The notes under the pieces are model-generated. The model saw only the letters and a list, made by a program, of their open reading frames with translations. It did no database searches and was not told where the DNA came from. The position numbers were made by a program, and so were the translations under genes. A DNA stretch of 32,000 nt, from assembly GCA_004284765.1 (NCBI GenBank), contig NQJD01000016.1, forward strand, positions 1 to 32,000. The letters run 5' to 3'. Of this stretch, positions 763 through 13,345 are shown one piece after another. Numbering within the stretch: the stretch's first letter is position 1; each line of letters opens with the position of its first letter. The stretch comes from Candidatus Electronema aureum (GTDB lineage: Bacteria > Desulfobacterota > Desulfobulbia > Desulfobulbales > Desulfobulbaceae).

Positions 763-3700
763 GGTCACCCAACCCAAAATCAACACCCGTAACATCTCCG
801 CCTCCAGAAACAGCGGCATTTTTTGGATTCGGCGCGTTGGTCAGAAGTGTGCCTACTGGCGGCATAACAAGAACCTGATAGTCGTCGCCGTCAGCACTGT
901 CAGGCAAACCGGTAAAGCTGTAACTTCCATCCGGGCCACTGAGGATGACTGCCAGCGGCTCATTAGTTCCGATAACTGTCCCTGGTGCGTACAGTTTAAC
1001 TGTGACAGCAGGATACCCAAGCTCGCCTGAATCCAACGTGCCGGTAGCATTAGCATCACTCCAAACTGTGCCGCTGATACTGCCGGTGTTGGTAGCGGGG
1101 ACATATCCCACATTATGAACCGTCGTGGCACCGCTGACTAACGTAAGAGTGGCGTTGTTGTTCTTGTCCACTCCGCTGGTCAAAACATAGCCGTCAGGAG
1201 TGCTGACGCTCACCGTGGTTGAACCTGCTGGCAGAACAAGTTGGTAAAAACCGTTGTCATCTGTGTACGCTGTGTAATACAGGCCGTTTGAGGCCAGCAC
1301 ATTGACCAGAACCCCCGCCAGCGGAGTATCTACGAGATTGATGCCGCCGTCGCTGGTGTTTTGGTCATGATAAATGGTGCCTTGCAAAACTGCGGTGCCA
1401 GCTCCAAGCACCGTGACGTTTTCGACTGTGGTGGAAGTAGGATCGAAGGGGATGATGCCTACGCCAGCTTTGATCAGGCCCACTTCATTATCGTAGGTGC
1501 CCGGAGAAGTGCCAGCGGCGATGTCAGCTTGGAAGGTGATGGTCACGCTGCCAGTTGCTGGAACAGTAATTGTCCAGACTGGAATGGCGGAACCTGTCGG
1601 TTCACCAGCTCCAGCGGTTCCGCCGGTGCTGCCAGCTTTGTAGGTGAAGCCCGGCGGCAGCTGGTCAGTCACTGCCACGCCAGCAATAGCCGCAGCAGTT
1701 GAATTGCCGACTGTGATAGTGTAGCTTGCAACGTTATCTGGTGCGGTCACGCTGCGCACTGCTGTACTCGTGGACTTCGTGACGCTCAGGCCACCGATAT
1801 TGATGTTCAGCGAGTTGGAAACTTCGGTGGTTTCGCTGCTGTCAATCTTGGCCGTATTGGTCACAGTGCCTGTGCCGGTCGGGAAGACAGTCACCTGCAC
1901 TGTGCCGCTGGCACCGGCAGTGAGGGTGCCGATATTCCAAGTAACGTCTTGCCCGCTCACTGTACCTGAATTGCTGCTGCTGAAATATTCCAACTCCGCA
2001 GGCAAGGTATCCGTCACCACCACATTGCTGGCATCAGCATTGCCAGTGTTCTGGTAAATCAGGCTATATGTGGCACTGCCGAAAACATTCGTTCCGCTGC
2101 TGGCTGTGATGGCAGCATCTACGGTCAAACTTTTGCTGCTCAGGCTCACAATACGGGCTGTAGTGCTGCCCACTTTGATATATTGCCCCACTTCAAAGGC
2201 AGCGGTACTGCTGACAAACAGGGTTGTGCCGTTTGCAGCTGCCGTCAATGTGGCCGAAGGATAGGCCAAGCTGGTGGCTCCGCTCTTTTGAATGGTCAGC
2301 AACGGGGCGGCAGTGACCGTGCTGCTGGCTGTGGCTTGACGGCTGCCGTGGTTGCTGGCTGAAGCCGTAGCGGTGTTGGGAACGTCTGTCGCTCCCGCAG
2401 GCATGGTGCTGTTGACAAGCACCTTGAAGCTCATAGTCACAGTGGTGCCGCCATTCACATCGCCCAGATCAAAGCGAACCCGGTTGCCCACAGGATCGAA
2501 GGAAGCGGTGCCTTGGTTTGTCGTTACACTTGCTGGCACATAGCTAGTATAGGTAGGAATTGGGTCTGTCACCAGCACCCCAGTGGCAGCACCGGAGCCG
2601 TTGTTGACCAAGGTCAGCGTGTAGGTGAGTGTGTCACCGGGGCTGGAGGCGGTTTTGTCCACCGTCTTGCTCAGGGCAAGGTTGGGGTTAGTGCTGATGG
2701 CGACGGTGACGGTGTTGCTGGTGGCCGTGCCTGTTCCGCCGCCTCCATAAATGCCGGTGGCCAAGTTGTCCTTTTCAGTCACGCCGTTGGGCGCACCAGC
2801 CTGAACCGTCATGGTGAAGGTGGCGGTTTTGGTTGCTCCGGCGGCAAGGGGGCCGATGTTCCAAGTGAGAACCCCGGCGGTTTGGGAGCATGTGCCCGCA
2901 CCTGTGCTGCACGAGCCGTAAGTGAACCATGCCTCATCAGGGAAGTTGTCCGTAACTGTCACACCGGTGGCATCAAGGGTGCCGCTGTTGACCGCCATCA
3001 GGGTGTAGGTGACAGTGTCGCCCACTGTCAGCAAGGTCTTGTTAGCAGATTTGAAGATGCGGACATCAGGCTGACGGGTGTCTACCGTGGTGGTGGCCGA
3101 GGCACTGGCCGGTGTAGCCGCCGTGGCCGAGAAGGTAGCGTTGTTGACCAGACTGGTTTTTCCCGTCAGGTCGTCATCCACATTGACCGTAATGGTCACA
3201 CTGCCCGTACCACTCGCAGCAACACTCGCTCCGGTAAAAGTCACAACCCCGCCACTGTGCGAGCAGCCGGTAAAATGCGACGAACCGACACTGCACGATG
3301 AATAGGTCGTACCCGCCGGAAGGTTATCCGAGATTGATGGACTCGATACCGCTGTCGCAGAACTGGTGTTCGCGTACTTCAAGGTGTAGGTGAGCTGCCG
3401 ACCCATTCCATTCTTCGCTATGGACGGAGTGTTGACCTCTTTTTCCAAGGCGAGTTTGGGATTGGATATACAGACGTTGCTCTTTGACAGTGCCAATTGG
3501 ACGGTGCTATCAATCGGGCTGGTAGTATTTCCGTCCCATTCCAACGCAATTCGCCTGCTAGTGCTTTGGGCCTCAAGCACCCAGCGAATCATGTGTCCGC
3601 TTGGCAGAGTCGTTGAGGCATTAGTAACCGTTAGATCGACAAACGACGACTTGTTGGCCGCAGCTACACTTGGAGATGTGCCTATCGCAGTAAAAATTCC

Positions 3701-6700
3701 GGTGGTTGGGTTATAAGTTCCTACAGTAGCTCTAATGTTTGGGTTGGTTCCATTAACACGGTCATAGTAGACCGTCAGGGTAATATTGCCCGTAATGGTC
3801 TGGGTGCTCGCAGCTACGGCTGAATAGAACCTGGCCACTTCATAATACGAAGCGTCGCGTGTAGCAAGTTCAATTGCCTCACCGGTATCACCAGCGACCG
3901 GAACGGGCGAAGTGCTTGCAATTCGCCGTGTCCCATCGTTGGCAATCCCGGCAGTCTCGTTGCGAAAATAGTAATCTGTACAAACAGAACCAGTTTCGGA
4001 GATGCCCACATTCGCCGTGTCTGTCACTGAATCCGCATTTGCAGCAGTCAATGTGGCGGTGTTCACGGCTGGATTGCTGGTGCCTATGAAAGGATTGCTG
4101 GCTTGCGCGGTGACGGTCACTGAGGCTGTTGCATCCACTGCCAAATCGCCGATGGTCCACGTCACAGTGCCGTTAGATCCCACCGCTGGCGCAGAACTGG
4201 GTGAACCTGTGGCGCTGACGTAGGTAAATCCATTCGGCAACGGATCAGTCAGAGTTACTCCGGTGGCAGCCGCTGTGCCTATGTTCCGATAGGCCAAGGT
4301 ATAAGTTATGTTTCCGCTAGGATTGACCGTGGCTGCGCTGGAGGTTTTCTCCAGCACAAGCACCGGCCTTGGGGCATTAATATAAACCGAGGCCGTAGTG
4401 CTGGCCGGATCAGTCTTGTTGCTGTCTATCGTGACGGTGTTGACGCTGTTTGCCGGGCCGCTGTAAGGAGTATCTACCGTGACGCTGTAGGAAACAGTGT
4501 ACGGCCCTTCGCCTGCATAGAGACCAGCACGGTTCCACGTCAGGGTACGGGTAACGCTGTCGTAGGCGCATCCGTCACTGCAACTGCCGAAAGTGAGACC
4601 AGCAGGCAAAATGTCAGTGATGACCACACTGCTGACATCTACGGTGGAGTCGTTGGAATAGCGGATGGTGTAGTTTATTGTTTCGCCCGGCGCACGGGTG
4701 AAATTGTCCGGGGTCTTGCTGATGGTCAGCCGGGGTGCTCCGACATTAATGGTCACTGGCGGGCTGACTATCGGACCATAGCTGGTTGCAGCATTGGCGG
4801 TGTTGGTGTAGTTGCCCACCACAGAGCTGGCGATGGCAACGAATGTCAGAGACAGGCTGCTGTCGGGGGCTATGCTTAATGGATTATTGTTATTACTCCA
4901 AGAAAGTATTTGCCCAGTCTCGCTTGGTTCACTATCATCAAAATCGCCAGTCGTGCTGTTAGGCTTATAGCTGAATCCCGGAGGCAAGGTGTCTTGAACT
5001 GTTGTGACCGTGATGGGCGATGGGTTTTTCAACGGATTTGTAACAGTCAGGGTGAAAGTGACTTCTCCGCCTACAGAAACTTCACTGACAGACGCTGTTT
5101 TTGTAATAACCGGCTCTACACCACAGACGTTCACAGAAAGCTCGGTGCCTGTGGTGGCGATTTTGGTGCCGGTCTCGTCGGGATTGCCCCACCAGTCTTC
5201 TTTTTCGTCAGGCGTTGCGGAGCTGTCATGCTGCGCGTCGTAAATGGCCTCTTGACCGTCGAGCCATCCAACCACGCCGCTGGGCTGTTCCCATTGCTTG
5301 AGGTCGCCGTTCCAGACCCAGCCGTTGGAATACACCTTGGCGGTGGGAGAATTTTCAGAAGGCGTGTAGCCCGCCAAATAGGAAAAAGTGCGGTTGGCCA
5401 CCGGCGCATTGGGAACGTCGTCATCCACCTTCGCCGGATCATCCACCGCTTGAACACCGATCAGGTAGGCACCTTTGAGCAGGCCGGAGGAATCCCAGTT
5501 CGCCTGCCACGTGTTGAGCGTGCCAGCTTTCTGTGTGCCGGTGGCGGCGTATGTCCACTCGCCTCCTGTCTCATCCGCCGCGCCGTTACCGTTCACATCA
5601 TGCCAGTAGTAGAAATCGACACTGGCGATGGATGGCTCAACCACCCCGCTGTTGTTATTCACATACAAGGTGTCCTGCACTCTGGCGGTGAGCTTGGTGG
5701 TGGTGCTCGACGCGCAGTTGGTGGAGCCTTCAGCTAATACTTCGGAAACGATGGGCTGGGCGTAGGGTTCGTCCCGGTTGAAGGAAAGATAATCGCCAAA
5801 CGGGGCTGGTTGGTTGGGGTCAGCAAGCCAAGTGCGGTTGAGGGCGCAGTCTTTCTGCAAAGGATTGTTTAAGCTGTTCGCTGTGCAGAACAGCATGGAA
5901 ATCGGCGTGTTACGGGTGATCGTCGGGCCGCCGTGCGCACTGGCATCCAGCATCTTGATCGGAATTTGATAATCCACAAAATACTCGGTGCAGCTATTGG
6001 CGGAAACTTTGATGGCGCGGGTTGTGCCGAAATCGTAGAAAACTTCAGCCGCTCCATTGGGCCAAGAAGTGTCAGGCGCGTTGCTGTTGTGATAATTAAG
6101 AAGGACACCGCTTGGATCTGCCACAGCAGCAGGATTATGGCCCAGCAGAAAAATGTTAGGATCGTCCACGTAGCTGATTGATTGTGTGGGCATCTTGCCG
6201 TAGATGCCTGCAACGGTGTCAATAGCGGTAGCCGGGCCACCGGAAGAGCCGTTGAGGTGGGCGGCCAAGTCGCGGTAGCCGGTACCGTCAATATCAAAGA
6301 ATACGGTCCAAAGGCCGGATTTCCACGGGTCGGTGCTGCCGTAGCTGCCGCCTTTATCATAAGAATGAGCAATCTGTTCAACACGCCAGCGAAAAAAAAG
6401 GACATCTTCCGACCCATCCGCCGCTGCCCCTTTTCTCATGCTGTAATAGATGCTGGGCAGATTCTTGTCAATGCACGAGGAAGCAATATTGACGTAGTTT
6501 TGAGGCGAGGTGCCGCCGTTGGAGGGATCCTGCACACGCGGGTCGTTTGCTCCAGTCTGGAAGCGGGTGTAAGGCTTCCAGTCGCCGCAGCTAGTGCCGC
6601 AGTTGAGCGGATTGGTTGGTTCGCTGGGCCAAGCGGCAACAGGGAAATGCAGCGCGGTGTTTGCTGTTGTGGGTGGATAGGGATCCGCCTGCGCCGCTGA

Positions 6701-6793
6701 AAATGGCATCGCCGCAGTCAGCATCGCCGCAGCAACGGCAAGACGAACTATAAAACTTCGGCCCGCTGAATAGTTTCTTCTTAATTTTTTCAT
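1..6793 (-). CDS. Giant secreted adhesin-like surface protein (N-terminus complete, C-terminus beyond window; at least 2264 codons)
   Basis: ATG at 6793-6791 is preceded by GAGGAG. Hand translation of the reverse complement stays open to position 1, in a frame that no track ORF occupies. The Sec signal is MKKLRRNYSAGRSFIVRLAVAAAMLTAAMPFSAAQA|DP. An unassigned domain of about 520 aa follows (about 5116-6685). Then come 8 DUF11-type 'conserved repeat domain' units (about 1400-5115), with signatures such as VTLTDPLPNGFTYVS, VTVTDNFPDEAWFTYGSC, VLVTDPIPTYTSYVP and VAVTDQLPPGFTYKAGS. Two SdrD-B/Cna-B-like units follow (about 766-1385), e.g. GTVWSDANATGTLDSGELGYPAVTVKLY...DGSYSFTGL. CshA-type repeats occupy 1-762. 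Confidence 0.85.
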   Translation of the reverse strand, partial: MKKLRRNYSAGRSFIVRLAVAAAMLTAAMPFSAAQADPYPPTTANTALHFPVAAWPSEPTNPLNCGTSCGDWKPYTRFQTGANDPRVQDPSNGGTSPQNYVNIASSCIDKNLPSIYYSMRKGAAADGSEDVLFFRWRVEQIAHSYDKGGSYGSTDPWKSGLWTVFFDIDGTGYRDLAAHLNGSSGGPATAIDTVAGIYGKMPTQSISYVDDPNIFLLGHNPAAVADPSGVLLNYHNSNAPDTSWPNGAAEVFYDFGTTRAIKVSANSCTEYFVDYQIPIKMLDASAHGGPTITRNTPISMLFCTANSLNNPLQKDCALNRTWLADPNQPAPFGDYLSFNRDEPYAQPIVSEVLAEGSTNCASSTTTKLTARVQDTLYVNNNSGVVEPSIASVDFYYWHDVNGNGAADETGGEWTYAATGTQKAGTLNTWQANWDSSGLLKGAYLIGVQAVDDPAKVDDDVPNAPVANRTFSYLAGYTPSENSPTAKVYSNGWVWNGDLKQWEQPSGVVGWLDGQEAIYDAQHDSSATPDEKEDWWGNPDETGTKIATTGTELSVNVCGVEPVITKTASVSEVSVGGEVTFTLTVTNPLKNPSPITVTTVQDTLPPGFSYKPNSTTGDFDDSEPSETGQILSWSNNNNPLSIAPDSSLSLTFVAIASSVVGNYTNTANAATSYGPIVSPPVTINVGAPRLTISKTPDNFTRAPGETINYTIRYSNDSTVDVSSVVITDILPAGLTFGSCSDGCAYDSVTRTLTWNRAGLYAGEGPYTVSYSVTVDTPYSGPANSVNTVTIDSNKTDPASTTASVYINAPRPVLVLEKTSSAATVNPSGNITYTLAYRNIGTAAATGVTLTDPLPNGFTYVSATGSPSSAPAVGSNGTVTWTIGDLAVDATASVTVTAQASNPFIGTSNPAVNTATLTAANADSVTDTANVGISETGSVCTDYYFRNETAGIANDGTRRIASTSPVPVAGDTGEAIELATRDASYYEVARFYSAVAASTQTITGNITLTVYYDRVNGTNPNIRATVGTYNPTTGIFTAIGTSPSVAAANKSSFVDLTVTNASTTLPSGHMIRWVLEAQSTSRRIALEWDGNTTSPIDSTVQLALSKSNVCISNPKLALEKEVNTPSIAKNGMGRQLTYTLKYANTSSATAVSSPSISDNLPAGTTYSSCSVGSSHFTGCSHSGGVVTFTGASVAASGTGSVTITVNVDDDLTGKTSLVNNATFSATAATPASASATTTVDTRQPDVRIFKSANKTLLTVGDTVTYTLMAVNSGTLDATGVTVTDNFPDEAWFTYGSCSTGAGTCSQTAGVLTWNIGPLAAGATKTATFTMTVQAGAPNGVTEKDNLATGIYGGGGTGTATSNTVTVAISTNPNLALSKTVDKTASSPGDTLTYTLTLVNNGSGAATGVLVTDPIPTYTSYVPASVTTNQGTASFDPVGNRVRFDLGDVNGGTTVTMSFKVLVNSTMPAGATDVPNTATASASNHGSRQATASSTVTAAPLLTIQKSGATSLAYPSATLTAAANGTTLFVSSTAAFEVGQYIKVGSTTARIVSLSSKSLTVDAAITASSGTNVFGSATYSLIYQNTGNADASNVVVTDTLPAELEYFSSSNSGTVSGQDVTWNIGTLTAGASGTVQVTVFPTGTGTVTNTAKIDSSETTEVSNSLNINIGGLSVTKSTSTAVRSVTAPDNVASYTITVGNSTAAAIAGVAVTDQLPPGFTYKAGSTGGTAGAGEPTGSAIPVWTITVPATGSVTITFQADIAAGTSPGTYDNEVGLIKAGVGIIPFDPTSTTVENVTVLGAGTAVLQGTIYHDQNTSDGGINLVDTPLAGVLVNVLASNGLYYTAYTDDNGFYQLVLPAGSTTVSVSTPDGYVLTSGVDKNNNATLTLVSGATTVHNVGYVPATNTGSISGTVWSDANATGTLDSGELGYPAVTVKLYAPGTVIGTNEPLAVILSGPDGSYSFTGLPDSADGDDYQVLVMPPVGTLLTNAPNPKNAAVSGGGDVTGVDFGLGDPPVAADDSSTGNQPGNMTLSVTANDSDPNNDLDVGTVDLDPATPGRQTSLAVSGEGDWTVDDLGNVTFTPEAGFTGDPTSIPYTVSDSTGLVSNQAMITIDYVPKAVDDSDAYTPGVAKTVAVLDNDTTGDAIVPATVSIVGGTDTNSDGTLDSLTVSSEGVWTVNASGQIVFTPESGFTGNPTPIQYTGKDAQGNVSNQATVSLTADPLPVAVDDSDAYTPGVAKTVAVLDNDTTGDAIVPATVSIVGGTDTN

Positions 6794-6909
6794 GACGGTC
6801 TCCTCAGTATCTCGACAGGATGCACCTTGCCGATCCTGCATTGTACCACAATGTTCTTTTTGCATTCTTTTCCATTATTACCTGCTAACAATATTGATTC
6901 CCTTTTAAA

Positions 6910-6938
6910 ATTATATATTTTTACAGTGAAAACAGCAA
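6910..6938 (-). promoter_or_regulatory. Candidate sigma70 promoter of the giant adhesin gene
   Basis: On the minus strand: TTGCTG (6938-6933), a 17-nt spacer, then TATAAT (6915-6910). This implies a 5' UTR of about 110 nt before the ATG at 6793. Confidence 0.5.
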
Positions 6939-6962
6939 GGGGAAAATGCTTTTCTTTTGTTA

Positions 6963-6971
6963 CCCCCCCCC
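6963..6971. repeat. C9 (G9 on the adhesin strand) homopolymer tract, 24 nt upstream of the candidate -35
   Basis: Counted directly: ...tttgttaCCCCCCCCCataacg... Confidence 0.9.
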
Positions 6972-6977
6972 ATAACG

Positions 6978-7013
6978 TAACAATGCAAAATAATAAATTA
7001 TTTTGCATTGTTA
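6978..7013. promoter_or_regulatory. 36-bp perfect AT-rich palindrome (17-bp arms, 2-nt centre); candidate operator
   Basis: TAACAATGCAAAATAAT-AA-ATTATTTTGCATTGTTA. It lies upstream of the adhesin promoter and 90 nt downstream of the CDF stop. Confidence 0.5.
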
Positions 7014-7102
7014 ATCATCGGCTACGTAAGTGAATACAGCAGATTTTGTGGTATCTAAACACTGAGTTCAGCAACGCAATATTGTCAGGAGAATAATTCC
7101 AG

Positions 7103-8023
7103 TTAGATGTCAGAGGGTATCTCAACACGGTCCAGCTCGGTATCATGCCAAGAAGCAGGATCATTGAGTGATTCCAAATGAGTGAATGCTGTAGTGTTTG
7201 GCACAGCACGGTAAAGGTCGGCTTCAATCTGCTCCAAAAGTTCATGTCCTTTTTGAACTGTCCATGCACCGGGCACCAGCACATGCAAGGAGACAAAACG
7301 GCGCACTCCCGCTCGGCGGGTGCGTAGGGCGTGGAACTGCACACTGTTTTGACTGTGCTGATCCAAAACCCGCTGAATTGCTTCCAGCTCATCAGCGGGC
7401 AGGGCTGTATCCATCAAGCCCAGAACCGAACTGCGCACGATGCGGATTCCTGCCCAGATGATATTACCCGCCACGATGAGGGCAACAAGAGGATCAAGCT
7501 GCTGCCAGCCGGTCAGTTCCACCGCGCTGACACCGATGAGTACCCCTACTGATGTCCAAACATCGGTCAACAGGTGCTGGGCATTCGCCTCAAGGGTGAT
7601 GGAATGATAGCGTTTGCTGGCTTTTAATAAAAAAAGGGCGACAAAGAGGTTCACCAACGAGGCTACAACGGACACCGCTATGCCGATTCCAATCTGCTCT
7701 AACGGCTTTGGGGCAAAAAAACGTTGCACAGCGGTCACGCCGATGCTTACTGCTGCGACCAAAATCAATATTCCTTCCGCACCGCTGGAGAAATATTCGG
7801 CTTTACTGTGGCCATAGGCATGATCTTCATCTGCTGGGCGAGCTGCTATTGTCAGCATGGCCAAGGCCATCAGCGCACCAGCTAAATTGACAAGGGATTC
7901 AACGGCATCGGAAAGCAAGCCGACTGAACCTGTCATTAGGTAGGCTGTAGTTTTGAGAATAATAGTGAGAACAGCAGCAGCAATGGAAAGCCACGCAAAG
8001 CGAGTCAGCGATTCTGATGGCAT
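7103..8023 (-). CDS. Cation diffusion facilitator (CDF) metal efflux transporter, FieF/YiiP-like
   Basis: 306 aa. It aligns by eye with E. coli YiiP: [31 protein letters not shown] and the TM5 HLLTD (HxxxD) motif. A C-terminal cytoplasmic domain is present. Confidence 0.85.
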
Positions 8024-8109
8024 ATTTCAGTAGTAGATGCGCGAGATGTAGTCAAAAAATGCCGGCTCCAGAACAGAACCGGCAGGCTGATCAGTCTGTT
8101 GTTACAGCA

Positions 8110-8454
8110 TTATTTGGAATCATACTGACCGTCTTCCGTCACCTTTTCCATGATTTCAGAGACCTCATAATAGGTATGACCGAACAAAGAGGCAGCCGCA
8201 CTGTAGGTGTAGGTGATTTTCACTCTCCGTCGCTCCAGCAGCTCAAACTTGAACTCTGTTGGTAGCTTCAAGAGTTCAAGCTCCTTTTTCAGATAACCTT
8301 TTACCAGCTCTTCGTTATCGTACTTCTTAATTTTGTTAGCCTGCTCCTGAATCACGTAGCCGGTTTTCTTTTTCTGGATCATAATAGTACCGATCTGCCA
8401 AGATGGCACCCCGACAACGGCCAGAATTAAAACTATCACTATGTTGCGAACCAT
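8110..8454 (-). CDS. Hypothetical protein with an N-terminal membrane anchor
   Basis: 114-aa ORF. It has one N-terminal hydrophobic helix (IVIVLILAVVGVPSW) followed by a Lys/Glu-rich soluble part. I recognise no motif. Confidence 0.5.
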   Translation of the reverse strand: MVRNIVIVLILAVVGVPSWQIGTIMIQKKKTGYVIQEQANKIKKYDNEELVKGYLKKELELLKLPTEFKFELLERRRVKITYTYSAAASLFGHTYYEVSEIMEKVTEDGQYDSK

Positions 8455-9130: not shown

Positions 9131-10291
9131 ATGCAGCAATCTGTTGCTGATTTATACCATCGCTCGGCGGCGGTGGTTGATTTATCTTGCATCACGCATA
9201 ACCTGAACGAGGTGCGAAGAAAAGTTCCCGGACGCAAGATCATCGCCATGATTAAGGCCAATGCCTACGGCCACGGATTGACGCGGGTAGGTGCGCATTT
9301 AGCGGCGGAAGGCGTGGATTACCTCGGCACCGCTTTTGTCGAAGAAGCCTTAGAACTGCGCAAGGCAGGCATCACCATTCCGATCATTACTTCCGGGCCA
9401 TTCTCCAAATTTCAGATTGGCCTGTTTATTGAGAATCAAATTGATTTTACTGTCGCCTCAGTTGATGCCCTCCATTTAATCAGCGAATCAGCCGCCTTTT
9501 ATAAAAAGCGGGTCAATGTTCATTTGAAGATAGACACCGGCATGATGCGGATTGGCATCCGGCATTCCAATGCTGACCAGCTTTTTGCTGCTGCGCTGAA
9601 GGTAGAAAAGCAGGTCAATGTGGTGTCGATTTTCTCCCATTTCGCCAATGCAGATAGTGAAGACCTCAGCTTTGCCCGCCTTCAGCTCGAACGCTTCTTA
9701 GAGGCTGCTCATTTTTATGACAAGCACAATCTGCCCAAGCCACTACTGCAAATCGCCAATTCCGCCGCCATCCTGCGAATGCCGGAAAGTCTGCTTGACA
9801 TGGTCAGGCCAGGGATTATGCTGTATGGCTATCATCCTTCGCAGTGTTGCAAGGCCGAGGCGAAGCTGCTTCCTGCTCTGTCGCTGCGGGCCAAGGCGAT
9901 GTATTTCAAAGTGATCCTCGAAGACAGCACGGTGGGCTACGGCAGGACATGGACAGCATCAGAAAATTGCCGGGCCGTCACTCTGCCGATAGGCTACGGC
10001 GACGGCTATTCGCGGGGTTTGTCGAATAAGGGACAGGTGCTGCTACGCGGCAAGCGATATCCAGTGGTCGGCACGGTCTGTATGGATCAAATCGTGGTCT
10101 GCATCAGCGATGGCGAGGCGTACAACGGCGAGGAGGTCATCCTCATCGGCAGGCAGGGCGAGGAAACAATCACGGCAGATGAGATTGCCGGGCAGCTTGG
10201 CACGATCAGCTATGAGGTGCTGACGGGCATCAGCCAGCGGGTGCCGAGGATTTTTATAGATAAAAAGCGAGGACAAAATAATGGAATCTGA
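9131..10291 (+). CDS. alr: Alanine racemase
   Basis: 386 aa. It has the PLP-lysine motif AMIKANAYGHG and a C-terminal ...GYGDGYSR...VCMDQ... region typical of Alr. Confidence 0.9.
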   Translation: MQQSVADLYHRSAAVVDLSCITHNLNEVRRKVPGRKIIAMIKANAYGHGLTRVGAHLAAEGVDYLGTAFVEEALELRKAGITIPIITSGPFSKFQIGLFIENQIDFTVASVDALHLISESAAFYKKRVNVHLKIDTGMMRIGIRHSNADQLFAAALKVEKQVNVVSIFSHFANADSEDLSFARLQLERFLEAAHFYDKHNLPKPLLQIANSAAILRMPESLLDMVRPGIMLYGYHPSQCCKAEAKLLPALSLRAKAMYFKVILEDSTVGYGRTWTASENCRAVTLPIGYGDGYSRGLSNKGQVLLRGKRYPVVGTVCMDQIVVCISDGEAYNGEEVILIGRQGEETITADEIAGQLGTISYEVLTGISQRVPRIFIDKKRGQNNGI

Positions 10292-11396
10292 AATTCACAT
10301 ACATCCAGATGCCGCTAAAAATATCAATAAAAGAGCGAATGAAATTCTATCGCTTGTACACGAAGTCCAACCAGTGAAATGCACAGAAAATTCTTCTTTC
10401 AAGTCTGAGAGAGTCATTTGTCATGATTTAGATGAACATGAATACACCGTAGATTACGAAGAAAGGATAGATTTAAAAGATGCTGAAAGGAAATTTATCG
10501 AATTCTCTTTCTATATAGGAGGGAGAAAGTTTTGCCTTGATAAAGATCATTACCATTTAGTTGCAGCTCTTTCAAGTCAAATAATATCATGTTTTTGCAA
10601 TAAAATTAGCAAAAAAATATCCATACAGCTTATATATAATTGGATTAAATTAAACTACGCAACTAATTATAGAAATATTATTTTTGATAGATACCTCGAA
10701 GAGGAAGCGAGAAGAAATATACGCGATATCACATGTTACATTCCAATAGCCAATCTTGAGATTGAAGAATCTTTTTTCGTTGGAAAACATGAACTGCGAC
10801 CATTATCAGAGATGGTAATAAATGAATGGGCAGAAAAATTATCGAGCAAGGAAAAAAATGATTTTTCTAACGATACAGCGTCGTTAATAGAAGATATTAG
10901 GCGTGAATGGCAAGGTCTTGCGGTTGTCGTATGCAAATACAATTCCGATGAATACCATGCTCATGCTTTGGCACGAGAAGAGGCAAGCAAGATTATTTCT
11001 ATTCTTGCGATATTTTTGCGAGAGATAACAATACCTAACATAAAAATATCATTGGGGCGATCAGAAGGAAATGATTTCATATCACGCGCAACATCTATTT
11101 CTCTGGCAGATAATAGGTTGACAATATATAAAGATTTTGAAAACAGGATGACATCAGTTCCATATCATAGAATAGATAAAAAATATATTAACTTATTGAA
11201 TGACCTTTGCTTTGAAAAAATATCCTGTCTTCTGGCTAAAGAAGAAAAGAGTTTAAATAAATTTCAGGAAAGAACGCTTGCTTCTCTGTTTATGTATTCC
11301 AAGTCTGCGTTTACCTCGGAACCAACCGAGAAGATAGTTTATACATTGACATCATTAGAAATAATACTTCTAAAAAACGACAGCGAACCAATTTAG
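10281..11396 (+). CDS. N-terminal part (about 366 aa) of an AT-rich HEPN-domain protein; the frame is interrupted, see next feature
   Basis: The ATG overlaps the last 11 nt of alr, with GAGGA 8 nt upstream. The region is strongly AT-rich relative to its flanks. The frame ends at TAG 11394, 16 nt after an A6 tract (11372-11377). The sequence ...EKIVYTLTSLEIILLK resembles the first HEPN helix. Confidence 0.7.
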   Translation: MESEIHIHPDAAKNINKRANEILSLVHEVQPVKCTENSSFKSERVICHDLDEHEYTVDYEERIDLKDAERKFIEFSFYIGGRKFCLDKDHYHLVAALSSQIISCFCNKISKKISIQLIYNWIKLNYATNYRNIIFDRYLEEEARRNIRDITCYIPIANLEIEESFFVGKHELRPLSEMVINEWAEKLSSKEKNDFSNDTASLIEDIRREWQGLAVVVCKYNSDEYHAHALAREEASKIISILAIFLREITIPNIKISLGRSEGNDFISRATSISLADNRLTIYKDFENRMTSVPYHRIDKKYINLLNDLCFEKISCLLAKEEKSLNKFQERTLASLFMYSKSAFTSEPTEKIVYTLTSLEIILLKNDSEPI

Positions 11397-11674
11397 CAGA
11401 ACGATTTGCATTTTTTCGTTCAAATAAATTTTCAGAAACAAAGGAATTGGTTAATATTATACGAAAAATTTATTCGATCAGATCAAAATATCTGCATCAT
11501 GGTTATTCAAGTTATGAACTCGAAATATCTTCAAAATTTATGTGTGAAGCATGGCTGTTTTTCATGCAATTGATAGCTGTTTCAGATTGCTTTCAAACTA
11601 AAGATGATTTTTTGTGTTCGATTGATGATAAAAAATTTGGCGGCGGAATATTTCTGCCGAAGAATGTAGTTTAA
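11378..11674 (+). CDS. C-terminal HEPN (Rx4H) part of the same gene, in the -1 frame
   Basis: The -1 frame is open from 11261. It reads ...NLAERFAFFRSNKFSETKELVNIIRKIYSIRSKYLHHG..., with R at 11480-11482 and H at 11495-11497 (Rx4H). The track lists only the TTG-started 11447-11674 portion. The stop lies 15 nt before the argS ATG. Confidence 0.65.
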   Translation, partial: RQRTNLAERFAFFRSNKFSETKELVNIIRKIYSIRSKYLHHGYSSYELEISSKFMCEAWLFFMQLIAVSDCFQTKDDFLCSIDDKKFGGGIFLPKNVV

Positions 11675-11689
11675 CAAAGAAATCCTTCC

Positions 11690-13345
11690 ATGATCCGATC
11701 ACGACTGAAAAACCTTCTTGACCACTGCTTCCAGCAGGGCGTGGAGCAGAACCTCTGGTCTGCCGCCGCTGCGGGCCTATACAATCTGGAAACGCCCAAG
11801 CACGAGGGCCAGGGCGATTTCGCCACCAACTTCGCCATGATCGTCGCGGGCAAGGAGCGGCGCAAGCCCCGCGAGGTCGCCGAGCAGCTCGCCGCGCTGC
11901 TCCGGCAGGATGCCGCCCTTTTAGACAAGGTGGAGATCGCCGGGCCGGGCTTTGTCAACCTTTTCGTCAATCCGGCGGTCTGGAGTTCAGTGCTCGCGCC
12001 GATTGCCGAGCAGCAGGAGCATTTCGGCCTCTGCGACATCGGCAAGGGCATGAAGGTGATGGTTGAGTTTGTCAGTGCCAACCCCACCGGCCCCTTGAGC
12101 GTTGGGCATGGCCGCAATGCCATCCTCGGTGACAGCATCGCCCGCTTGCTTATTGCTGCGGGCTACGATGTGACCCGCGAATACTACTTCAACGATGCCG
12201 GGCGGCAGATGCGCGTTCTCGGCGCATCGCTTCAGGCGCGTTACTTAGAAAAGCTGGGTCTGCCGAATGAATTCCCGGAGGACGGCTATCAGGGCGGCTA
12301 CATGTACGACATCGCCCAAGGCATGATTGACGAGGCGGGCGACGGCTTCAAGGACGCGGACGTAGATGTCTTCCGCAAGAGGGCGCAGGAAGCCATCTTT
12401 GCTGACATAGACGCGACCCTGAAGCGCATCGGCATTATCTTCGATTCCTACTACAACGAGCACGATCTCTACGAGAAAGGACTGATTGACGACGTAGTAA
12501 CAACGCTTCGGGCCAAGGGGTTAGTCTATGAGCAGGACGGCGCGACGTGGTTTAAGACCACTGAGTTCGGCCAAGCGCAAGACCGGGTGATCATCAAGAA
12601 CACCGGCGAACCGACCTACCGCCTGCCAGACATCGCCTATCACCGCGAGAAGTTCCGGCGCGGCTTTGAGCGGATGATCAACGTCTTCGGCTCTGATCAC
12701 ATCGCCACAGTGCCGGACGTGCTGGCCGGAGTCGAGGCTCTTGGCTTTGACAAAACCAAGGTGCAGGTCATCATGCATCAGTTTGTCACTCTGATGCGCG
12801 GCGGAAAGCAGGTGAAGATGTCCACCCGCAAGGCCACCTTTATCACGGTTGATGAGCTGGCCGACGAGGTGGGCATTGATGCGCTCCGCTTCTTCTTCCT
12901 CATGCGCAAGCCGGATTCCCAGCTTGAGTTTGATCTGGAATTAGCTAAGAGCCAGAGCCAAGAAAACCCAGTTTATTACGTGCAATACGGTCATGCTCGA
13001 CTCTGTTCCATTGAGCGGATGGCAGTAGAGCGCGGCGTGGTTGTGCCTGAACTGGCTGATGTGAATTTGGACTGCCTGCGCGAGCTGGAAGAATATCAGC
13101 TCCTCAAGACATTAGCCGCCTATCCCAGCTTGATCGCAGATGCGGCCAATGATCTTTCCCCGCACCGCATTATCTTCTTCCTGATGGATTTAGCTGGACA
13201 GTTCCACTCTTTCTACAACAAGCACAAGGTGATGACTGAGGATGCGCAGCTCACAGCAGCGCGGTTCTGTCTGTGCCGGGGAATTAAGACTGTGCTGGCG
13301 AATGGGTTGGGGCTGGTCGGCGTAACTGCGCCGGAAAGGATGTAA
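11690..13345 (+). CDS. argS: Arginine--tRNA ligase
   Basis: 551 aa. It has the class-I motifs SANPTGPLSVGHGRN (HIGH-type) and KMSTRK (KMSKS-type), plus a DALR-type C-terminal anticodon-binding region. Confidence 0.92.
   Translation: MIRSRLKNLLDHCFQQGVEQNLWSAAAAGLYNLETPKHEGQGDFATNFAMIVAGKERRKPREVAEQLAALLRQDAALLDKVEIAGPGFVNLFVNPAVWSSVLAPIAEQQEHFGLCDIGKGMKVMVEFVSANPTGPLSVGHGRNAILGDSIARLLIAAGYDVTREYYFNDAGRQMRVLGASLQARYLEKLGLPNEFPEDGYQGGYMYDIAQGMIDEAGDGFKDADVDVFRKRAQEAIFADIDATLKRIGIIFDSYYNEHDLYEKGLIDDVVTTLRAKGLVYEQDGATWFKTTEFGQAQDRVIIKNTGEPTYRLPDIAYHREKFRRGFERMINVFGSDHIATVPDVLAGVEALGFDKTKVQVIMHQFVTLMRGGKQVKMSTRKATFITVDELADEVGIDALRFFFLMRKPDSQLEFDLELAKSQSQENPVYYVQYGHARLCSIERMAVERGVVVPELADVNLDCLRELEEYQLLKTLAAYPSLIADAANDLSPHRIIFFLMDLAGQFHSFYNKHKVMTEDAQLTAARFCLCRGIKTVLANGLGLVGVTAPERM

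Follow-up and report, generated by a model that had tools for sequence, protein, structure and literature searches.

A probable HEPN-family gene between alr and argS of Candidatus Electronema aureum, very probably broken by a 10-nucleotide deletion

ApeA, reportedly described by Gao and colleagues in 2020, is a single-gene HEPN anti-phage system. In HEPN domains, an R-x4-6-H motif with a polar residue after the arginine is combined with an insertion separating helices 2 and 3 and with an acidic residue conserved in helix 2 (PMC3710099). ApeA has about 580 amino acids (aa), is mostly alpha-helical, and is composed of an N-terminal, a Mid and a split HEPN domain (bioRxiv 10.64898/2026.01.26.701840). 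DARNA, a tRNase of about 456 aa activated by single-stranded DNA bound to the protein SSB, carries its HEPN domain at residues 1–159, followed by an all-helical C-terminal domain (bioRxiv 10.64898/2026.02.22.705581). Cleavage of tRNA or mRNA upon infection by a self-inhibited HEPN effector made of one polypeptide has been described for both ApeA (bioRxiv 10.64898/2026.01.26.701840) and DARNA (bioRxiv 10.64898/2026.02.22.705581). The locus analysed here lies in Candidatus Electronema aureum, within a stretch of 32,000 nucleotides (nt) that we call the window (positions 1 to 32,000 of the forward strand of contig NQJD01000016.1, assembly GCA_004284765.1). Positions 10281–11674 of the window, on the forward strand like all the features described below, probably represent a decayed and defence-related member of an uncharacterised HEPN family, which was inserted long ago between the housekeeping genes alr and argS.

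The coding sequence of this stretch is divided between two frames, as the first-pass annotation had mapped them. Frame 0 stays open for 371 codons between 10281 and 11396, where it ends in the TAG at 11394–11396, while the −1 frame is open from before 11270 up to 11674. The frame-0 product, P0002, is identical to the NCBI proteins TAA74831.1 (CDV28_1167) and CAK8722394.1 and aligns with residues 1–371 of intact relatives; it comprises an N-terminal alpha/beta domain of unplaced fold and helices 1 and 2 of the putative HEPN domain. According to the protein alignment and to a structural model of the C-terminal domain, the remnant detached from it (11393–11674, −1 frame) carries the insert helix, beginning LAERFAFF, then HEPN helix 3 with the R-x4-H motif, helix 4 and a C-terminal helix. 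The motif itself, RSKYLH followed by H-G, is encoded at 11480–11497, just where it had been placed at first reading.

A homologue search of 5.8 billion proteins returned 19 intact relatives of 448–474 aa, the closest of which are P0001 (85% identical, from a Joint Genome Institute metagenome contig) and P0003 (67% identical, from a Candidatus Electronema sp.). All 19 carry the sequence LLKNxxEPIQQNLAERxA across the critical region. In the window, frame 0 reads LLKNDSEPI and stops, the −1 frame picks up at LAERFAFF, and Q-Q-N is missing. Because the relatives all read EPIQQNLAER at this point, frame 0 must be the true frame through and past the run of six adenines (A6, 11372–11377) that precedes it. 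E-P-I is invariant in the 19 intact relatives, and E and I are at least 90% conserved among 140 more distant family members, in which the Q and N residues are likewise invariant or at least 90% conserved.

The DNA alignment accounts for both the missing residues and the change of frame. Two Electronema contigs (L001 and L002) read GAGCC-AATCCAGCAA-AATTTAGCAG and two others (L003 and L004) read GAGCC-AATCCAACAA-AATTTAGCAG, while the window reads GAACC-AATTTAGCAG. It lacks 10 nt at about 11390/11391 (AATCCAGCAA or, equivalently, ATCCAGCAAA or TCCAGCAAAA) that are present in these four contigs, which belong to two other Electronema lineages. The junction (11389–11392) lies in non-repetitive sequence and is flanked only by a 2-nt microhomology (AA). 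The deletion removes the near-invariant Q-Q-N, shifts the frame and cuts the R-x4-H motif off from the first 371 codons, so that the split is very probably that of a pseudogene made by this event. The A6 run had initially been taken as the only sensible place for the frame to change, with a difference of one nucleotide in it as the cause; both frames are, however, open over more than 120 nt, and the lesion is a deletion of 10 nt situated 13–20 nt downstream of the run. Among the three explanations first offered for the split, namely a homopolymer error, an inactivating or phase-variable indel, and programmed frameshifting, it is the genuine inactivating indel that the alignments favour.

Further changes are consistent with a gene in decay. 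Downstream of the deletion, the window has a threonine codon (ACA, 11438–11440; SETKEL, against SKRKEL in the relatives) at a position where at least 90% of the 140 aligned family members have arginine, and this is a second damaging change. When substitutions were polarised with L003 as the outgroup, the lineage-specific codon changes after the deletion (nonsynonymous : synonymous) were 7 : 0 in the window lineage and 3 : 4 in the L001 lineage, and those before the deletion were 8 : 13 and 6 : 11, respectively. Small as these numbers are, they are in keeping with a gene that was inactivated fairly recently and whose untranslated 3′ part has since been under relaxed constraint. As the alignments show, the 10-nt deletion at 11390/11391 eliminated Q-Q-N in Candidatus Electronema aureum and brought the TAG at 11394–11396 into frame, leaving a 371-aa product without helix 3, helix 4 and the catalytic motif, and a 3′ remnant that is starting to decay. 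The window copy is thus incapable of the predicted HEPN effector action; residual roles of the DNA or of the truncated protein are possible but unsupported.

One such role, improbable as we judge it, would be that the broken gene is still useful, through its 371-aa N-terminal product, a separately translated C-terminal piece or both, or because the DNA is kept for expression signals of argS. The 5′ part shows no nonsynonymous excess, although similar rates there are equally expected if the deletion is recent. In all three lineages, moreover, only 15 nt separate the gene from the essential argS, and promoter-like sites occur in its AT-rich DNA, for instance at 11431–11460; these sites, however, number 8 against 6.0 ± 2.0 in shuffled sequences and are not enriched. 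As for a separate C-terminal piece, the first start codon of the 3′ frame (TTG, 11447) directly abuts the only AGGA available to it and falls past the insert helix, so that helix 3 would be made without its partners.

Slightly less probable still is an error of sequencing or assembly that conceals an intact gene. The source of the genome was an enrichment or metagenome, and long-read assemblies often contain homopolymer errors, but a 10-nt difference in non-repetitive sequence is not a typical error, and the adenine run that a homopolymer error would have affected is A6 in an intact relative as well. The identical 371-aa product is, moreover, on record under the two NCBI protein accessions and in one Logan assembly of public reads (an exact look-up of it on contigs found no record), and the additional damaging substitution downstream also speaks against an error.

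Very unlikely, in turn, is programmed −1 ribosomal frameshifting, by which the sequence A-AAA-AAC (11372–11378) would give rise to the full-length HEPN protein at a low rate. Its attraction is plain, as cta-aaa-aac at 11370–11378 formally fits the X-XXY-YYZ heptamer pattern in the zero frame, the frame-0 TAG follows 16 nt further on, all as first annotated, and the −1 frame is open from the heptamer to 11674. The heptamer is nothing special, however, because AAAAAAC is found 16 times in the window. The relatives are unbroken single open reading frames, so the arrangement in two frames is not conserved, and the 85%-identical one has the same CTAAAAAAC within its gene. L001 and L002 likewise have an identical CTAAAAAACG inside an uninterrupted reading frame, and L003 reads TTAAAGAAC at the position of the heptamer, within the wider stretch TTAAAGAACG. 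Past the heptamer, frame 0 still codes for the conserved NDSEPI, with homology as far as EPI, 13 nt beyond it, and the actual discontinuity lies further downstream. No stimulatory structure was found after the heptamer: the minimum free energy of the downstream RNA is −11.8 kcal/mol compared with −9.2 ± 2.4 kcal/mol in shuffled sequences (z = −1.1), and 25 of 200 shuffles fold as well. A slip at the heptamer, or its “repair” to seven adenines, would yield LLKKRQRTNLAERF, in which E-P-I and Q-Q-N are replaced by KRQRT and Q-Q-N is still missing; the repair was rejected because it destroys conserved residues. In the alignments with relatives, the heptamer reads simply as the Lys-Asn codons of the conserved LLKN, that is, as Leu-Lys-Asn written in AT-rich codons. 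The locus is thereby a tempting false case of programmed frameshifting, in which a conserved tripeptide in an AT-rich gene mimics a slippery site.

A reversible phase-variable switch can be set aside with similar assurance: toxic defence genes are at times phase variable, but the deleted 10 nt stand outside any simple repeat, with nothing beyond the 2-nt microhomology, and no mechanism would restore them.

With the break explained as a 10-nt deletion, the nature of the protein that was lost can be considered. The AlphaFold2 model of full-length P0001 (mean predicted local distance difference test score, pLDDT, 79) shows about 300 N-terminal residues of mixed alpha/beta structure, with beta strands at 72–86, 148–174, 214–222 and 272–298, followed by a helical C-terminal domain. 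The C-terminal domain modelled alone reached a pLDDT of 91. By secondary-structure assignment of this second model, the helix at 92–111 ends in R109-S110, H114-H115-G116 lie in a loop, and the next helix spans 119–141; an extra helix at 76–88 is placed between the two hairpins, and the invariant E65 falls within helix 53–68 of the preceding hairpin, although its spacing is E-x4-K and not E-x3-[KR]. The R and H of the motif are invariant in the 140 aligned members, and a serine follows the R in at least 90% of them. The predicted layout matches the one published for HEPN domains (PMC3710099).

Similarity to annotated HEPN proteins points in the same direction. All eight matches obtained with tblastn of the family consensus against plasmids lie in genes that NCBI annotates as “HEPN domain-containing protein”. 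With hhalign, the family profile aligned with WP_065658973.1, from an Agrobacterium pAt plasmid, over 346 columns that include the N-terminal part and the HEPN domain (hhalign probability 96.6%), and with WP_047719672.1, from a Klebsiella phage-plasmid, over the HEPN core (94.8%). The UniProt entry of P0002 itself (A0A521G1T8, window 10281–11396) is named “Apea-like HEPN domain-containing protein”. The basis of these UniProt and NCBI names was not reproduced with the copies of Pfam and NCBIfam used here. The best match of the C-terminal model in a Foldseek search of the PDB was the HEPN-MNT toxin 8xeh_B, and entries of HEPN toxins (8xeh, 8xdj, 8yuf and 4nqf) made up 10 of the top 50 chains. 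From the placement of the motif, these fold matches, weak as they are, and the links to annotated proteins, we consider a HEPN ribonuclease the likely identity of the helical C-terminal domain (about 160 aa).

Several results weigh against this interpretation. The matches to HEPN toxin folds are not significant (E 0.8–3; template-modelling score 0.27–0.38), nor is any score of that fold search (E 0.8–3.4; template-modelling score 0.25–0.38), and the full-length model of P0001 matched no fold in the PDB. No match was found in Pfam, NCBIfam or PADLOC for the repaired protein, the sets of 20 and 73 members, the C-terminal fragments or the consensus, even at E values up to 10 in the case of Pfam and NCBIfam. 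Sequence searches of the PDB with the family profiles gave only chance matches to bromodomains. A comparison by hhalign with a HEPN profile of four sequences (the HEPN protein of L001, 1wol, 1ufb and 1o3u) gave no signal, but that profile is thin and the result uninformative; no DUF86/HepT genes that could have improved it were present in the fetched loci. The scan of viral contigs in IMG/VR contained no relatives of the family, and both the defence function and the RNase activity of intact members are properties that we infer. On the side of the pseudogene, the substitution counts behind the argument for decay are small, and the break is known from assemblies, so a minority intact allele may exist in the population. 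The HEPN call stands on the invariant R-x4-H, the predicted layout, the weak fold matches and the annotated relatives, and finds no backing in curated models. The other part of the proposed architecture, a large N-terminal domain of unplaced fold ahead of a HEPN-like C-terminus, is supported, and so is the likeness to single-gene abortive-infection proteins.

The surroundings of the gene are those of an insertion. Upstream is alr, for alanine racemase (9131–10291; 85% identical to the L003 gene, with Pfam domains Ala_racemase_N/C), the final 11 nt of which contain the ATG at 10281 of the AT-rich gene. Downstream, the TAA at 11672–11674 is separated by a 15-nt spacer (11675–11689) from the ATG at 11690 of argS, for arginyl-tRNA synthetase (11690–13345; 89.5% identical to the L003 gene, with Pfam domains tRNA-synt_1d/DALR_1), and the same spacing is seen in L003 (11422 to 11438) and L001 (5007 to 5023). 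A stretch of about 1.4 kb accordingly fills the whole gap between the two genes, from a start inside alr to a stop just before argS, as first described. Its content of guanine and cytosine (GC) is 32.4%, compared with 51.5% in the remaining window, and in local windows of 300 nt it is 29–36% within 10281–11674 and 55–65% in the alr and argS flanks.

A metagenome scan with ArgS gave 80 related contigs with 62–91% ArgS identity. The distance from the end of alr to argS is at most 150 nt in 53 of them and 166–651 nt in another 10, and none of the contigs contains a family member. Because the two genes stand so close in 53 of the 80 contigs without the family gene, the tight pair is taken as ancestral and the 1.4-kb gene, therefore, as an insertion. 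This insertion is not recent, since the gene occupies the same position, and is just as AT-rich, in two other Electronema lineages: in L003 and L008 (Alr 85% and ArgS 89.5% identical to the window) and in L001 and L002 (ArgS N-terminus 95% identical), it also lies 15 nt before argS. Between the window and L003, the gene (67% identity) has diverged faster than its flanks (85–89%). The comparison thus indicates that the gene was horizontally acquired and inserted before the sampled Electronema lineages split. An empty site in relatives, a GC content 19 points under that of the rest of the window and a family scattered over many phyla are all features of an islet, and they bear out the original impression of a foreign-looking gene, with the qualification that the relatives that carry it keep its AT-rich composition; in 53 of the 80 related contigs alr directly abuts argS.

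Other rearrangements were seen at the same place. In L003 (Candidatus Electronema sp. GCA_052784925.1), the 3′ tail of alr is a 55-nt copy (9162–9216) of an internal segment of argS, 96% identical to its own argS at 12360–12414 and 94.5% identical to the window at 12612–12666, and it is followed by a gene of the Uma2 family (9355–9954) and then by the HEPN-family gene. This copy looks like the scar of an older rearrangement or of a partial duplication of argS. In L001, nothing but the last 32 codons of alr remains (3516–3611), with PemK and HEPN-MNT toxin-antitoxin genes ahead of them, in L084 a TPR-methyltransferase gene (707–2164) separates alr from argS, and in L023 and L024 unrelated genes, for a 248-aa protein and for a caspase-like/FGE-like protein, stand upstream of argS in place of alr. 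The junction between alr and argS therefore appears to be unstable in the cable-bacteria group and a recurrent site of insertion and rearrangement. In the window, a terminator-like hairpin (GGCATCAGCCAGCGGGTGCC then GAGGATTTTT) is found at 10226–10255, within the 3′ end of alr and just ahead of the AT-rich stretch; it may still act in termination or attenuation between alr and the genes that follow, or be what remains of such a signal.

The family to which the gene belongs is large. Among proteins clustered at 50% identity, a profile built from the relatives matched 3,724 representatives at E ≤ 1e-3, of which 958 remained at E ≤ 1e-30; the members are almost all about 450 aa long (440–475 aa) and match end to end. 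A second word-index homologue search with the alignment as query returned the same family only, without Pfam labels, and a literature search on the accessions and on HEPN proteins or pseudogenes of cable bacteria found nothing relevant. A pattern scan of species-representative genomes located members in Desulfobulbaceae, Desulfocapsaceae, Scalindua, cyanobacteria, Cellvibrio, Hydrogenovibrio, Aeromonadaceae, Hyphomicrobium, Chloroflexia, Nitrosomonas and Pyrinomonadaceae, a patchy spread across many phyla. No neighbouring gene is conserved across 18 family loci, and the gene stands alone. Its varying neighbours include a WYL regulator, PDDEXK_4, Fic and AAA_15 proteins, insertion sequence (IS) elements, HicA, toxin-antitoxin pairs and plain housekeeping operons.

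In 22 of 22 loci (L001–L022, L103–L107), the family gene is richer in AT than its flanks, by 12 GC points on average and by 28 in the most extreme case (L106). This low GC content persists even where the gene has evidently been resident since before the species split. Proximity to argS was seen once more, in an unrelated organism (ArgS 27% identical; L105, positions 4429–8353 of a contig from ENA ERZ928181), in which a family member 36% identical to the gene lies 830 nt downstream of argS; argS is nearby in none of the approximately 20 other family loci. The proximity in both Electronema and L105 may be a coincidence or, more speculatively, reflect a link to arginyl-tRNA.

Taken together, the intact ancestor would have had about 467 codons, for a protein in which an N-terminal alpha/beta domain (about 300 aa), with a probable role as sensor or regulator, preceded a C-terminal helical domain of about 160 aa. 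The comparison with relatives shows that it was acquired horizontally and placed into the tight junction between alr and argS before the sampled Electronema lineages split, and that it has remained there, in the same direction as both. By analogy with ApeA and other HEPN proteins made of one polypeptide, the N-terminal domain would keep intact members inactive until infection or stress, when they would cleave tRNA or mRNA and thereby abort phage growth. On this analogy, we consider the arguments for and against an abortive-infection function of the intact family to be evenly balanced. That the family is an undescribed single-protein anti-phage system, pairing a divergent HEPN RNase with a new alpha/beta sensor domain that controls it, is a more tentative proposal, and one that we regard as possible but doubtful.

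If this account is correct, Electronema has intact copies (P0001 and P0003) and a broken copy (in the window) at one fixed chromosomal site, and both pieces of the reading frame should be annotated as a single pseudogene. The wider interest lies in a large and widespread family without a curated model, which unites an N-terminal domain of unplaced fold with a probable HEPN nuclease in an architecture like that of ApeA-type abortive-infection effectors; its intact members could add a new pairing of sensor and effector to bacterial immunity.

Among the systems described, the toxins of the HepT/HEPN-MNT type (8xeh, 8xdj, 8yuf and 4nqf) appear to share with the family a predicted four-helix core and an R-x4-H at the boundary of helix 3 and the following loop, and they gave the best, though non-significant, fold match. 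They have about 130 aa, however, and are paired with an MNT antitoxin, whereas here the domain is fused to an N-terminal region of 300 aa and has no partner gene. WP_065658973.1 and WP_047719672.1 show the same LE.LL..I.Q.L..R......R......Y.LRS..vH pattern and also occur in defence-island or mobile settings, the former beside a TIR protein, a GIY-YIG nuclease and an integrase and the latter on its phage-plasmid; they differ in being only 14–23% identical, and they are themselves uncharacterised and without a Pfam or NCBIfam match. DARNA, compared by its description, is also one protein of similar length in which a HEPN nuclease and a large non-catalytic domain acting as sensor are joined, but it was rejected as a relative because its domain order is the opposite, with the HEPN domain at the N-terminus.

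ApeA is the closest analogue in logic. Both are stand-alone polypeptides in which non-catalytic N-terminal domains precede a HEPN domain (a probable one in the family) that has extra insertions and carries its R-x4-H in helix 3, both are found in variable, defence-like neighbourhoods, and the UniProt name of the window product refers to ApeA. The family differs, in contrast, in size and N-terminal architecture (about 450 aa and an N-terminal region of mixed alpha/beta structure, against a longer and mainly helical ApeA) and in profile, as no member matches the ApeA models of PADLOC or the Pfam models HEPN_Apea and ApeA_NTD1; in addition, the window copy is broken. The locus itself is an ordinary pseudogene, and what is new is the family, as a variant of the scheme in which a sensor domain and a HEPN nuclease are joined in one protein.

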